Assembly (NCBI GenBank): GCA_964016885.1
Contig: OZ024752.1
Location: 28,272,001-28,336,000, forward strand
DNA from: Eledone cirrhosa
Lineage: Eukaryota
Direction of reading: 5' to 3'
Length of the DNA: 64,000 nt
Shown here: piece by piece, positions 32,003 to 63,213 of the stretch
Position numbering within the stretch: the stretch's first letter is position 1
Layout of the letters: each line of letters begins with the position of its first letter
Program-made: the position numbers and the translations under genes
Notes under the pieces: generated by a model
The model's database searches: none
What the model was told of the DNA's origin: nothing
The model's input: the letters and a program-made list of their open reading frames with translations, nothing else

Positions 32003-32084
32003 TCTCTCGGACAGATTAGGGATTAATCTGTTTCGCCCTGGGTGTGTTTGTAACAGATAATCCATGGGCATCATCACCGAGAGA
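32003..32084 (-). ncRNA. Type I hammerhead fold with G at core position 3
   Basis: Minus: ucucucg GUGAUGA u gcccaugg..ccagggc GAAA cagauua-auccc-uaaucug UC cgagaga. All three stems pair. Confidence 0.65.
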
Positions 32085-32539
32085 ATTTAATTAAATGCGA
32101 CAAACACCTAGTACCAACGTTCACACAGAAAAATGAATTCATCACCTCGTGTGCCGTAAGTCAAAAGTGGTATGAGTGTATTGGTTAGAAACAACAGTCC
32201 AACACACGCAACTTAATAAGCTCACCTCTTGAGGGAGCCGAAATATATATATATATATATATATATATATATATATATATATATATATATATATATATAT
32301 ATATATATATATATATATATATATATATATATATATATATGTATATATATATATATATACTATGATTTAGGGACTTTGTTGGTATGTAATCAACAGAGTT
32401 ATGTTCATAACAGATACGAAGCACTCGACCAGTAAATTTGTCTGGAGTATTATGATAATAATAGTAATAAACGAAAGATATAACACTATATCATCACTAT
32501 TTATAACAAACAAGAGACAATACATCTATCCGTAGCGCG

Positions 32540-34070
32540 CCCATAAATTATGCTTCGATTAGTACAAAACTATGTTTCATTCTTTAAGTTAACAAGCATT
32601 TCCCTAATTCCCATAAATACAGTAAAATTCTAAACTCTAAGAATGTTAAGCTATCATACTCCACTGCACCAAACCTTGAAGCATACATAAAAAATTTTTA
32701 ACTTAAAGCAATTATTAAACAACACTACAAAACAAAATATTTTAGAAACAGATGGGCATAACGTAATATCAGCCTCCCAACCACCAAATGGGAGACGGGT
32801 ATTACACAACCCACCTGAACTGTTATCCCAACCTATCCATGGAACACCTGCTACCCACAACAAAAACTGCAACTGCCACCTACCCGAAAGTTGCCCATTG
32901 AAGAATAAATGCCTAGAGTCCAACATTGTTTATCAATGCACTGTCGAATCGAACGACCAGAAATGGTATTACATCGGGTCTACCACTACCTCCTTTAAAT
33001 CTCGCTGGTATCATAATCGATTTTCGATTAAACATCCTGAACACCGTCTTGTAACCACGCTCGCCAATAAGACCTGGCAACTCCGTGAATGCAACCGGCA
33101 GTTCACTTTGAAATGGGATAAATTATCCAGCGCTAGTGCATATTGGAGTGGATTGAATTACTGCAGATTATGCAACCTTGAACTCTTTTATATCTTGAAA
33201 TCCAAAAACAACTTACTAAATGACAGAATCGAACGATCGTTAAACTGCAACCATAAACTGAAGGCTAAATTTTCTCACTATAAAATAACTTAACATTCGA
33301 ACCCGAGAATACAACATCACTTTCTCGCTAACTAATTTCATTCAATAACTACTTCCTAACTATACCCCCCCCCCCACACACACACACACTGCAGGGCAGT
33401 ACCCTGCTTATCATTATAATTGGATACTTGAGTACGATCAGCAGACTACAACTATTAACTCGGTGTATACCACCATTCGTTCCCCTTCTCGTAGCTTTTC
33501 TCTGTCCCCTCTCTCTTTCTCTTTCTTTCTCTATCTCCCTTCCTCTCCCTCTATCCCTCTCTCTCTCTCTCGCCTTCTGTCTCCCCCCCCCCTCCACATC
33601 TATCAACCTGCTCTCTGTGGCAATAAATAATTCCAAACTTGACAATATCAACACAATGCCTAAGTTGTCACTTTGAGAGTGATCAGTATAATAAAACCAC
33701 TTGTTGGACCCTATGACAACATTTAGATTAAGCTATCTGTATTCTTCAAACCACTCTCTCCCATTTCTCCGATCCCTACATATCTCTGTCTCTCTCTCTC
33801 TCTCTCTCTCTCTCCCCTTCTTTCTCTCTTCCTTTTCTACTCTATCTTCCCCAATAACTCCCTTTAAGAAATACAAGGGAATTTACACTTTAGCCATTTG
33901 CTCTGAAGACACGGTAGGATGAACAACATTTGAAAATTGAGTATCTGCAAATAAATAACTAGCAATTTGCACATAGCATGATTAGGCTGTGTAACTACTA
34001 TAGAAACATGTGTAAGCACTCAGAATAAATTACCTTTTTATGATGTGTACCTGTTTTATTATTCATTCTT
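32540..34070 (+). mobile_element. Penelope-like element remnant A (GIY-YIG endonuclease, Naiad-like linker)
   Basis: KHFPNSHKYSKILNSKNVKLS, CNCHLPESCPL, IVYQCTV..YYIGST..FKSRW, CRLCNLE..LLN; 3' region carries a hammerhead. Confidence 0.8.
33899..34018 (+). ncRNA. Minimal type I hammerhead with long stem II (PLE A)
   Basis: tgct CTGAAGA c-acggtag..ctactat-a GAAA catgtg TA agca. Confidence 0.6.
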
Positions 34071-60000: not shown

Positions 60001-60601
60001 AGAAGATGAATAAAAGATAACACGTCTGTATTGGATGTGTTGTCTGGTATGAGGTGAGACCGTAATGTGTGGGTGAGTGTGTGTGTGTGCCTGTGTGTGT
60101 GTCTGTGTGTGTAGTTTTCGTGTGATTCAACCAACCAACCAACCAATATAACATGTATAGATATTTTATATAAATTTGATTTCATTGCTGCTTTCAGTTT
60201 CGACTTCTTAAATAGATCTCTCAATCTCCCAATAAATCTACAACTACGCCTCCACTAACATGGATATATGGCTGAAGTTATCACAAACAATTTGAATAAT
60301 TTCCCACTTCTCCATAGAAACAGGTGACACATGATCGTATGGCATATCTGTCTTATGATAATATCTAGGTTCTACTTTACTTAAGTATGGAATATTAGAT
60401 TTAATTAGTGTGAATAATGATATTACAGGTCTTAATTAGTTCGTTCTCTCTCCCAATATATATATATATATATATATATATATATATATATATATATATA
60501 TATATATATATATATATATATATAATATATATATATGTATGTATGTATGTATATATATATATATATATATATATATATATATATATATATATATATATAT
60601 A

Positions 60602-63213
60602 GTATTAATTGTACTATTTATTGTTATGAAAATACAAAAACCTTTAGCAGTTATATGTATTTTTTATACAAACCCTAAATAGTGGTAGGCAGTAATGTAT
60701 TACTAGCTTATTACCAGTAAGTTAAGTAGCTCAATGTAAAAACACCAGATGATTTACAGAGCAGTTATATGAAATATAAGAATCAAAGAACTGTTCAAAA
60801 CATTATTGTGCTTACAGCTGTTTCCTCCAAACCGAGGTTTGGATTCTTCGGAGCAATTTATTAATGAATGGACAGTTATATGACCTCCTTTTCAGCCAAG
60901 AGACATACCGATACATATGCAAATATTGTGGGTCAACATTCATTACAGCATTTAGAGTGGCAGTACACACTTCGAGATTACATTTATAATAAAAGGTACA
61001 ATCAAAAATCAAAAATACAGGTTAAAATACAACATGAAGATAAGCGGTTATATAGTGCAAATGTTATATGTGTGGCAAGCACGTGCGTCTTGTTTATATA
61101 GTGTGGCAGAGAGATATGTGTGGTAGGAGCACTTAGGTAGGTAAAGAAGAGTGTTAGGTTGGTTGATCTGGTGGGAAATTCTTTATATGATTGTTATAGT
61201 CTGTGTGTGGAGAAAAGATATAAGCATTAAAAATAGTGCAAGCTTTAAAAGTATTAAACGTATTGGAGATGCACAGCGAAGGGATGACAAGGACCTCATG
61301 TACTTCGACATTTTCATGGTCAGGGGAGTGTATTCTTCGATTATATGCCCCTCACATAATCCACGGCAATTCTATATTGAGCGTTTGACAATCCAGTTAG
61401 AGAATCGTAGTCCGATGTTCTTTAGTTCAATACAGGAGGCTGTTACGTTTCGCGAAACGACATTGAATACTACCCGGAAGTGTGTGTGTGGCTAAGGGGA
61501 GTTAATGCATGAGGGGAGGTAACTCCGGGGTTTCTATACCTAGCTATTGAAATGTCTCAATATAGACCCTAATTTCTATGGTTATGCGCAACTTCCAAAA
61601 GATTCCTAAAGCATAAAGTGTTTTAACTATAAGTAGTTTATTAAGTTGTGCTGAAGGTGTTCGTATTATTATGGTGAATTAACCCCCATCCTAGGGTGCT
61701 CCAAATGAATATTATAGGTGATGAGCGAGGATTCTAAATTAATGATCCCTGTGGTTGTACCCTACTCATAGGACCAGGCGCGGTGATTGCAGAATCACTT
61801 CAAGACACAATGATCTCTGGTAAGTTCTGGGTCATCGCTTGCTACATTGGATGTCGAAAGGTAATCATCATCAGGGCCGGCCAGAGGTCAATCCGCAGTC
61901 CTCATGACCCCACTCTGACCATCAAATCATCCATATAAGTACAACCCGCACGGCAGTTGCAATACATTCATTCTCTGCACTCAGCGTCCTGGTCCTACTG
62001 CTCAACAGCGTAACTAGATTAAATCGTTTTTCATCTGTCTAAGGAAGGCACTTCCTCCGCACAACACCACCAAAACTAATCAATTCATGCTTAAATTACC
62101 TATAGAGCGGTGTAGTGCAGTTCAGGTGGGTGGATGTTGTCACCCCTAACGTAGAGGCATAAATGGGTATTCTCCCAGCGAAGGGTTCCGGAGGGATGTC
62201 GTAGTTTGTGTTATATTAGATCAGTTAGTGTTGTGTATGTGGTATAAGGTGTGCCCCTGGTGTTTGATGCTAGATGTGGTGTTTGGTTCAAGTCCGACAT
62301 TGCTATATATTGGGCTTAAAGTTTTGGAAGGAATGTCTGAAGCGGTGCTGGCAAGTTGCAAACACCTCAGATTTTTTGTTAAGTAGGTTACGGTTGGAGA
62401 AGATAATGTTGTGGGTCTCTAGTATACAGAGGTTACAGAATTTATTAGGTGGTTTGTACGAAGTCGCGCTGCCTATCACTTCCCATTTGAGTGTGTATGG
62501 TTTATTTTTAGTTTTTAGATAGTGTATGTAGCTAGATAGTGAGGTGGAGTTGGCTAGGCTGTGCTTTTTGAACGAGTGGATGTGCGAATTATATCTGATT
62601 TTGAAGCTGTTAGAAGTGGAGCCTACATAGGTTTCTGAAGAGTTGCTAGTTGTGACGGTGCATGAGTATATGATATCCTTGGTTAGGCATTTTTTATCCA
62701 AAGGGCAGGTTCTATTAGCTCTACAGTTACAATTATCCTGTGTGTTAGTCTGCTGGTTATAATGCAGTGCAGAAGTCTGGGTGGTAGCTATAGGATTTTG
62801 GACATTCGGGTTGTCAACCCCGGTGTTATTTCTTATACTAGTGTTATTTCTATTGTTACTGCCGTTACTATGGTTGCTTGCTACAGAGGTATTTAGAAGG
62901 TTTGGATTCTGTTGTGATTTCGTTTGTTGGAAGTAAGAATTAATTTTATTTTTATTGCTGCTAGCTATGTGGTATGCTAAGTTAGGCGTCGTAGAGTATG
63001 AGATTTTAATAGTGTTTTTGTTTAAAAGGTTGTGGTACTTGTGTCCTAGAGGGAAATGTTTATCTAGTAGTGAGAAGAAAGCCCTAGGTATGTTGGTGGA
63101 GACATTTAGGTTGAAAGGAGGGTTGAAAAATGTATTATTTCTTCTTCTATTTTTGCTTTTAGTGTTTGGTGTGTTGTTTCTTCTTACGGCACCACAGTAG
63201 TTTCCGTGGTAAT
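60602..63213 (-). mobile_element. Penelope-like element remnant E (GIY-YIG, Naiad-like) with long 3' region
   Basis: FFNPPFNLNVSTNI..HFPLGHKY..IKISYSTTPN, CNCRANRTCPL, IIYSCTV..YVGST..FKIRY, CNLCILE..LLNKKSE. The left boundary is approximate. Confidence 0.82.
60809..60855 (-). ncRNA. Minimal type I hammerhead (PLE E), U4C core change
   Basis: Minus: ugcu CCGAAGA a-uccaaacc-uc-gguuugga-g GAAA cagcug UA agca. Confidence 0.6.

Follow-up and report, generated by a model that had tools for sequence, protein, structure and literature searches.

Decayed Penelope-like elements with hammerhead-bearing 3′ ends in (TA)n-rich DNA of Eledone cirrhosa, and two candidate junctions at or beside the predicted cut site

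A stretch of 64,000 nucleotides (nt) of the Eledone cirrhosa genome (GCA_964016885.1, contig OZ024752.1, positions 28,272,001 to 28,336,000 of the forward strand), called the window below, carries five remnants of Penelope-like open reading frames (ORFs A to E) together with many short sequences shaped like hammerhead ribozymes. This raises the question of what the motifs are, whether they belong to the ORFs, why they outnumber them and whether any of them has left a trace of cutting in the DNA. We consider it very probable that the window represents decayed, 5′-truncated copies of several Penelope-like families, four with Hydra-type ORFs and one with a Neptune/Nematis-type ORF, whose 3′ ends pass into (TA)n and bear a hammerhead motif of type I, and that the motifs without an ORF (orphans) are likely short 3′ ends of the same kind. 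The ORF types, the anatomy of the motifs, the inverted arms and the adjacency of TA tracts were observed in the window, as was the link between ORF and motif for B and C.

The window is microsatellite-rich with 33% GC, and the motifs were counted in it with a type-I hammerhead descriptor (C3-G8 or U3-A8 core, at most one core fault, stem II region of at most 130 nt), which was composed after the motifs had already been seen. Under standard settings 15 matches were obtained, 14 of them scoring at least 15 and 10 at least 18. The original prediction, a list of 12 coordinates and about 15 motifs made from the sequence, had proposed shuffled sequence as the control; against the 14 real matches, dinucleotide shuffles (3 x 60, of the whole window, of 500-nt blocks and of 200-nt blocks) gave a mean of 0.40-0.60 at a score of at least 15 (maximum 3) and 0.08-0.13 at a score of at least 18 (maximum 2), and the window reversed and complemented gave no descriptor match at a score of at least 15. 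At all 12 predicted coordinates a type-I hammerhead-shaped sequence was present on the stated or implied strand. The descriptor recovered 11 of the 12, 10 with standard settings and 38656 with relaxed settings only; 35692, with its weak stem I, was missed even with relaxed settings and was found by eye. Six further sites were added, at 2223 (-), 4218 (+), 26184 (+), 28810 (-), about 29050 (+) and 42419 (+), so that the count of about 15 becomes 18 sites in all, relaxed and hand-read cases included, 12 of them with an intact core. Standard matches at 29601, 34297 and 52576, as well as ten relaxed matches scoring below 12, were discarded as likely chance.

An independent covariance model, built from 16 motifs of metagenome loci of other organisms, returned 11 matches in the window at E≤5 and 7 at E<0.1, every one of the latter a site listed earlier; it missed the U3-A8 motifs and the long-loop motifs. 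In these 16 related metagenome motifs, from which the covariation was taken rather than from the window's own families, 12 of 16 helix pairs changed on both sides, and 93% of positions paired, compared with 31-45% when the helices were slid. In a search against Rfam, hammerhead was absent from the best 150 of 232 window matches, nearly all of them microsatellite-driven microRNA matches below threshold. The possibility that the motifs are mere chance folds in AT-rich, repeat-rich DNA draws on the three weak descriptor matches, which probably are chance, and on the motifs after ORF A (33899) and in family B, which taken alone fold no better than shuffles (z=+1.24 and z=-0.60, respectively), the motif at 35692 having z=-3.25. 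Against it stand the excess over shuffles, the seven listed sites found by the independent model, the repeated families, and the preponderance of sense over antisense motifs in relatives (38 versus 2, given below). The chance account is therefore refuted for the whole set, where we give it next to no probability, and could still apply to the single motif 33899. The motif set in the window is real.

The 12 intact cores (7 C3-G8 and 5 U3-A8) had the type-I form, with CUGANGA or its U3-A8 counterpart, GAAA and UH, and three helices. Stem III had been described in the original prediction as mostly palindromic or near-palindromic; an exact palindrome was found in 5 of the 14 distinct sequences, ACAUGUGU being near-palindromic only, and at 32003 and 40319 stem III was a long hairpin. 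Small variants with a short palindromic stem III are said, in a 2017 report, to cleave as dimers. The predicted action as dimers misfits families C and 32003, whose motifs, with their long stem III, formed the full three-way junction alone, as monomers, upon energy minimisation. Six motifs (26184, 28810, 32003, 33899, 35690 and 40319) had long stem II regions of 36-97 nt, partly branched. A long stem II of this kind may account for the "half cores", with the second half 35-50 nt away, that are described for some Naiads, including Naiad_Ovul, in the accessible part of Craig 2021 (PMC8557442).

The five ORF remnants, which retain the GIY-YIG endonuclease and in two cases part of the reverse transcriptase (RT), and the sequences that accompany them were as follows.

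32543..33293, plus strand: ORF A remnant, Hydra-type linker and GIY-YIG endonuclease, with a stop and a frameshift (tblastn, alignment)
32360..32495, minus strand: inverted arm with a tail, lying 5′ of ORF A and 71% similar to the tail of the 39079 family
33899..34018, plus strand: motif of hammerhead shape that follows ORF A, with an intact core, a 93-nt stem/loop II and weak fold support
36245..37339, plus strand: ORF B remnant, from the RT end to the endonuclease
38656..38703, plus strand: motif of family B with a U3-A8 core; stem III is ACCGGU and stem I contains a single mismatch (relaxed descriptor)
2084..4367: second family-B insertion with two inverted arms, motifs 2223-2270 (-) and 4218-4265 (+), and a 37-nt tail on one arm
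40307..42602: element C, with a minus arm bearing a Hydra-type ORF (41362-42033) and motif 40319-40412 (-), and an inverted plus arm (42026-42602) bearing motif 42419-42512 (+) and a tail; both motifs with U3-A8 core, 19-nt stem III and 54-nt stem II region
43005..43110, minus strand: short motif-bearing piece (43035-43101) with G at the cut position, between TA-rich tracts
43429..44756, minus strand: ORF D remnant, Hydra-type RT and endonuclease, frameshifted
60809..60855, minus strand: motif after ORF E, core U4 changed to C
62303..64000: element E, with a Hydra-type ORF at 62303-63214 (-) and an inverted copy at 63481-64000 (99% match) that runs off the window

ORFs A, C, D and E were 29-41% identical in pairs over the endonuclease region, and all four, when aligned, showed the CxCX5C linker and CxxC and CxH around a conserved E and N, with CCHH absent. 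ORF D contained the RT followed by a GIY-YIG endonuclease at the C terminus, and ORFs A, C and E retained linker and endonuclease only. This combination of linker, CxxC/CxH and missing CCHH is published as the mark of the Hydra clade (PMC8557442, section 11), and these four ORFs, as far as their sequence can tell, bear the marks of Hydra-clade Penelope-like elements. RW[KR] and DKT, N-terminal marks of the clade, were present in all 4 full-length proteins among the 10 homologues returned, the window copies being 5′-truncated. ORF B comprised the RT end, a CX4CxxC linker and, at the C terminus, a GIY-YIG endonuclease of CCHH type with two Cys between the GIY and YIG boxes, and can be assigned by its linker and CCHH type to the Neptune/Nematis-type elements, whose linker has the form CX2-5CxxC; the clade calls were made from motif marks. 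Naiad membership was ruled out for B and D, in which the endonuclease follows the RT (Naiad has an N-terminal endonuclease and no canonical hammerhead). Pfam GIY-YIG matched ORFs A and E weakly (E 0.02-0.04) and was absent for C and D; nothing in Pfam lay above the cut-off for any Penelope-like ORF or for two homologues. In viral contigs no relative of the Hydra alignment and no match to the 20-nt family-C pattern were found. Within about 365 codons ORF B had a single stop, a TGA at 37076-37078 (+), at the second conserved Cys of the CCHH motif, in which the first His was also changed to Tyr. Naiad elements read UGA as selenocysteine. A crude scan of the ORF B 3′ untranslated region (UTR) for folds like the selenocysteine insertion sequence (SECIS) gave three weakly folding matches, none convincing; because the His of the same motif is changed too and no convincing SECIS-like fold was seen, decay appears likelier than selenocysteine.

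It was then asked of each ORF whether the motif behind it belongs to it. As originally predicted, the nearest downstream motif was in sense orientation for all five ORFs, but such agreement reaches only p=0.03, and five of five says too much: the physical link is firm for B and C, likely for E and unproven for A and D. The motif belongs to the element of ORF C, because two inverted arms, 97.6% alike and each with a motif, meet at the truncation point of the ORF, and because reads of other family C copies join the ORF to the motif arm (41566>42421, 41819>42438 and 41567>42546). The motif likewise belongs to the element of ORF B, because the second insertion at 2084-4367 has the same stretch from the endonuclease end (37297) through the motif. 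Motif 60809 likely belongs to ORF E; the 1.45 kb between them contain no TA tract or other repeat, and the motif has C at core position 4. Agreement of strand was seen more clearly outside the window, in 79 metagenome loci encoding relatives. In 60 of them at least 150 nt of sequence lay downstream of the ORF; a sense motif was present in 38 of these 60 and an antisense motif in 2, and both antisense loci had a sense motif as well.

The claim that the elements insert into (TA)n tracts held well. All 15 selected predicted cut sites (one arm per inverted pair) had a TA tract within 212 nt downstream, and the distance from cut site to TA tract had a median of 58-102 nt, compared with 474-705 nt for a background of random non-microsatellite positions (p≤0.0005). 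Reads were analysed in 4 of 15 runs for one 1775-nt stretch, and no RNA run was listed as carrying the sequence; the reads of family C ended at 42527 or at 42594-42601, with TA repeats following both (more than 1000 reads per listed pile in each of two runs). Read depth in two raw-read runs tracked restriction sites (with a step at 42474, AATT) and was therefore not taken as copy number. In a run labelled as another organism, contig depth at 42450-42604 was 320-904 over the last 150 nt of family C and 27-69 over the ORF, values that give no copy number; the contrast is in line with far more 3′ ends than coding parts.

The sites that have no Penelope-like ORF attached to them were as follows.

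38873..39182: 39079-family insertion, with an inverted tail arm (38873-39015) and a sense arm bearing an intact motif at 39079-39139 (+)
39322..39387, minus strand: orphan motif, core G5 changed to C, 88% like 43041
49033..49097, plus strand: orphan motif of the 39079 family, intact core
50319..50361, minus strand: orphan motif, intact core, weak stem III
57041..57095, minus strand: orphan motif with an intact core and stem III AUAUAUAU, lying in an insert of 205 bp flanked by TA tracts
32003..32084, minus strand: orphan motif, core position 3 G, 8-bp stem III, in a 380-bp insert between TA tracts
35690..35814, minus strand: orphan motif found by eye, with an intact core, a branched stem II of 97 nt, stem III ACGAUCGU and a weak stem I
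26184..26258, plus strand: orphan motif, 3′ end 83% like 39328
28758..29169: two inverted copies, 96% alike, one bearing motif 28810-28888 (-) and the other, found by self-BLAST, a partner at about 29050-29130 (+) whose core is cut or mutated

Several points weigh against reading the window as truncated hammerhead-bearing Penelope-like copies. Damaged cores were found at 6 of the 18 sites (32003, G3; 28810, U5; 29050, cut or G3; 39328, C5; 43041, G at the cut position; 60809, C4), and the ORF-to-motif distance was about 330-1450 nt in the window as against a median of about 136 nt in the relatives, among which the 38 sense-motif loci include near-duplicates of the same families and are hence not independent. 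The motif after ORF A folds no better than shuffles, as said, and the inverted 5′ arm of ORF A resembles the 39079 family and not the sequence after 33899; that this motif belongs to ORF A is unproven. Unproven, too, is that motif 43041 belongs to ORF D, from which its piece of about 105 nt is separated by a 116-nt TA tract. Six orphans (32003, 35692, 50319, 57041, 26184 and 28810) have no ORF in the window by which to place them. As for the neighbours of these motifs, 39328, the sister of the D motif (88% alike), has different upstream sequence, and a long (CA)/(TA) microsatellite lies in the 3′ UTR of both copies of family B (37666-38345 and 2583-3350). A microsatellite between ORF and motif is thus not by itself proof of separate insertions, which bears on D.

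That the orphans have no ORF would also agree with their being, instead of truncated ends, non-autonomous units like retrozymes, which are short tandem repeats bearing canonical type-I hammerheads, set in motion by Penelope-like proteins, and retrozymes derived from Penelope repeats are described in the accessible text of two sources (PMC7229834; bioRxiv 10.64898/2026.07.22.740005). Non-long-terminal-repeat (non-LTR) retrozymes are recognised by head-to-tail units of about 150-400 nt, each with a hammerhead; among the self-comparison matches listed, neither tandem units nor head-to-tail arrays were seen around any motif. The copies, moreover, vary in their 5′ start, have common 3′ ends and form inverted arms with tails, which is the Penelope pattern, and we regard the retrozyme origin of the orphans as improbable.

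Truncated Penelope-like 3′ ends also have a conceivable origin in common. Families B, C and 39079 each had two alternative 3′ ends, a short end and a longer tail end, with tails of about 37, 78 and 92 nt, respectively. By analogy with known elements, the GIY-YIG domain would nick AT-rich DNA, and the RT would start at one of two internal sites shortly downstream of the motif, giving the short end and the tail end. Reverse transcription would mostly terminate early, and motif-bearing 3′ ends would accumulate far beyond full elements; early termination leaving many short 3′ ends, motifs come to outnumber ORFs. Of the "dense, diverse ribozyme-bearing retroelement system" that had been proposed for the locus, the Penelope-like elements with a ribozyme motif remain, and the density is explained by ordinary 5′ truncation leaving many 3′ ends. 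In our model the motif would cut a tandem precursor RNA, as a dimer where stem III is short and palindromic and as a monomer in family C. Perhaps, and here we are doubtful, a minority of the cDNAs would be copied from already-cut RNA and halt at the cut site.

Two junctions bear on this last step. A family-C mini-insertion of 114 bp at 34109-34222, lying between TA tracts and 96% like element C, consists of a 97-nt tail arm and a 17-nt short arm placed head to head at 34205|34206; in both arms the first base is the one following the predicted cut site (+1), and the joint carries a single mismatch. The inverted tail arm of the 39079 family, which ends at 39015, has its start at +2 relative to the cut site predicted there. 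Elsewhere in the window, the junctions that could be mapped lay at about -1700, -480, -116, -67, -65, -40 (twice), -12 and +42, and far upstream in family B. Two cut-site matches among 12-20 junctions have a post hoc chance of about 0.001-0.06 under uniform truncation. Two relatives of family C illustrate the other positions.

56713..56970: an arm (56713-56747) with its start within stem III, and a fold-back (56777-56970) whose centre lies about 40 nt ahead of the cut site
19014..19153: tail arm beginning at +42, linked to an arm whose start lies about 40 nt ahead of the cut site

The arm at 56713-56747 begins in the middle of the palindrome that forms stem III and abuts a TA tract.

A tentative explanation, to which we give a minor share of our belief, is that the insertion at 34109-34222 was made of two cDNAs from the two start sites of family C, both running off the 5′ end that hammerhead cleavage had left, and that the arm at 39015 records the same event in a second family; the junctions would then be DNA fossils of ribozyme-cut template RNA. 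Our preference goes, with reserve, to the account in which the junctions at +1 (34205) and +2 (39015) are ordinary RT stalls or fold-backs at hairpins by the cut site, or coincidence, with no bearing on cleavage. In family C the GC-rich stem III hairpin (-7.1 kcal/mol) is one base from the site, a suitable place for a stall and a point against a cut template, and the centre of the sister fold-back at 56.8 kb lies about 40 nt from the cut site. However, both arms of the mini-insertion end exactly at +1 and not at the base of stem I (+5) or of stem III (-1), and the stem III of the 39079 family is only weak. No junction at 42507/42508 was seen among 15 of 45 joints listed or among the top loose-end piles, which speaks for stalls; yet the reads, and with them the joint search, are restriction-biased, and the 17-nt arm was probably too short for listing as a joint. 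In the 79 metagenome loci, 0 of 18 partial alignments started within 20 nt of the cut site, many of them not being true junctions. The accessible part of Frangieh 2024 (PMC11167929) likewise favours stalls, reporting no RNA ends at the site and a motif that is dispensable in vitro, and in the accessible part of PMC8557442 the function of the hammerhead is called unclear. Two metagenome contigs (L017 and L030) that start 3-4 nt before the cut site were not counted, at least L030 being an assembly overlap.

A further family, at 6849-7056 and 54507-54649 (tail pieces 26294-26364 and 26620-26679), has inverted arms, two 3′ ends and TA flanks, with no core in the window. The centre of the fold-back at 6849-7056 falls on AACGTT, with the start of the 54507 copy three bases further along. 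Should AACGTT mark the close of a minimal hammerhead (with ACGU as stem III and cleavage after U), the 54507 copy would begin at exactly +1, an unverified third candidate. Searches aimed at cut-site junctions in the literature found no report of them, most subscription papers being outside their reach. Were the fossils to be true, they would give genomic evidence, measurable for each family with nothing but DNA, of in vivo cutting by Penelope hammerheads within the transposing particle; and should junctions accumulate at the cut site, counting them in the DNA of a genome with so many short copies would be a direct test of cleavage in vivo.

Other repeats were also observed in the window. A SINE-like dispersed repeat of about 190 bp is present at 9202-9383 and in some 20 further copies between 11.3 and 59 kb, 70-98% alike; no tRNA was detected in the window with ARAGORN. 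Other inverted or fold-back structures close to TA tracts, lacking a recognisable hammerhead, occur at 35295-35443, 55345-55498, 28296-28609 and 5083-5161. Remnants of non-LTR retrotransposons lie at 707-1279 (-) and 5266-6300 (-); they comprise the start of an RT (Pfam RVT_1, E 2.7e-11) and a C-terminal frame, long and with a motif of CxxC type, that looks L1/Tx1-like.

Compared with known systems, the four Hydra-type remnants resemble the Hydra clade (Craig 2021, PMC8557442, Files S1/S2) in the RT with C-terminal GIY-YIG, the CxCX5C linker, CxxC/CxH without CCHH, the sense hammerhead with self-complementary stem III at the 3′ end (firm for C, likely for E), (TA)n and inverted 5′-truncated copies. 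In the accessible part of that source 27 Hydra families are listed, 26 of which prefer (TA)n, including Hydra-1_Obim of Octopus bimaculoides, and, save for one inverted copy, each of the 26 motif rows is sense-strand; the motifs lie for the most part close to the 3′ end and have a self-complementary stem III. By eye, the motifs of the window are unlike the one listed for Hydra-1_Obim and thus point to other families; the 3′ UTRs of the window are also longer. Family C departs further, its U3-A8 core, 19-nt stem III and 54-nt stem II contrasting with listed Hydra motifs that are all C3-G8 with loops II of 3-10 nt. ORF B agrees with the Neptune/Nematis type in the C-terminal GIY-YIG, the two Cys between GIY and YIG and the CX4CxxC linker, this copy having a stop at one Cys and Tyr at one His.

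With the minimal metazoan hammerheads (Cervera and de la Pena 2014, PMC4209133, accessible part) the window shares the type-I form, long helix II, short helix I, palindromic stem III, U3-A8 and dispersed single motifs; that paper describes the covariant U3-A8 core and, in each genome, thousands of scattered single motifs left by truncated copies, and a short palindromic stem III is taken to imply dimer cleavage of a tandem precursor. It differs from them in several long branched stems II (36-97 nt) and in two long stem III hairpins that fold as monomers, a trait reported there for fungal and protist elements. Family C, with its intact U3-A8 core and long stem III, is a simple candidate for a monomer-active Penelope hammerhead of animals. 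Poseidon of Anolis carolinensis (PAc; Frangieh 2024, PMC11167929) is alike, in the accessible part of that paper, in having two 3′ ends per family downstream of the motif and AT-rich targets; its tails are 30-40 nt, compared with about 37, 78 and 92 nt in B, C and 39079, and no RNA ends are reported at its cut site, whereas the window has two DNA junctions at or beside the site. The system as first outlined for this locus has already been published, and the window accordingly adds families to it and not a principle.

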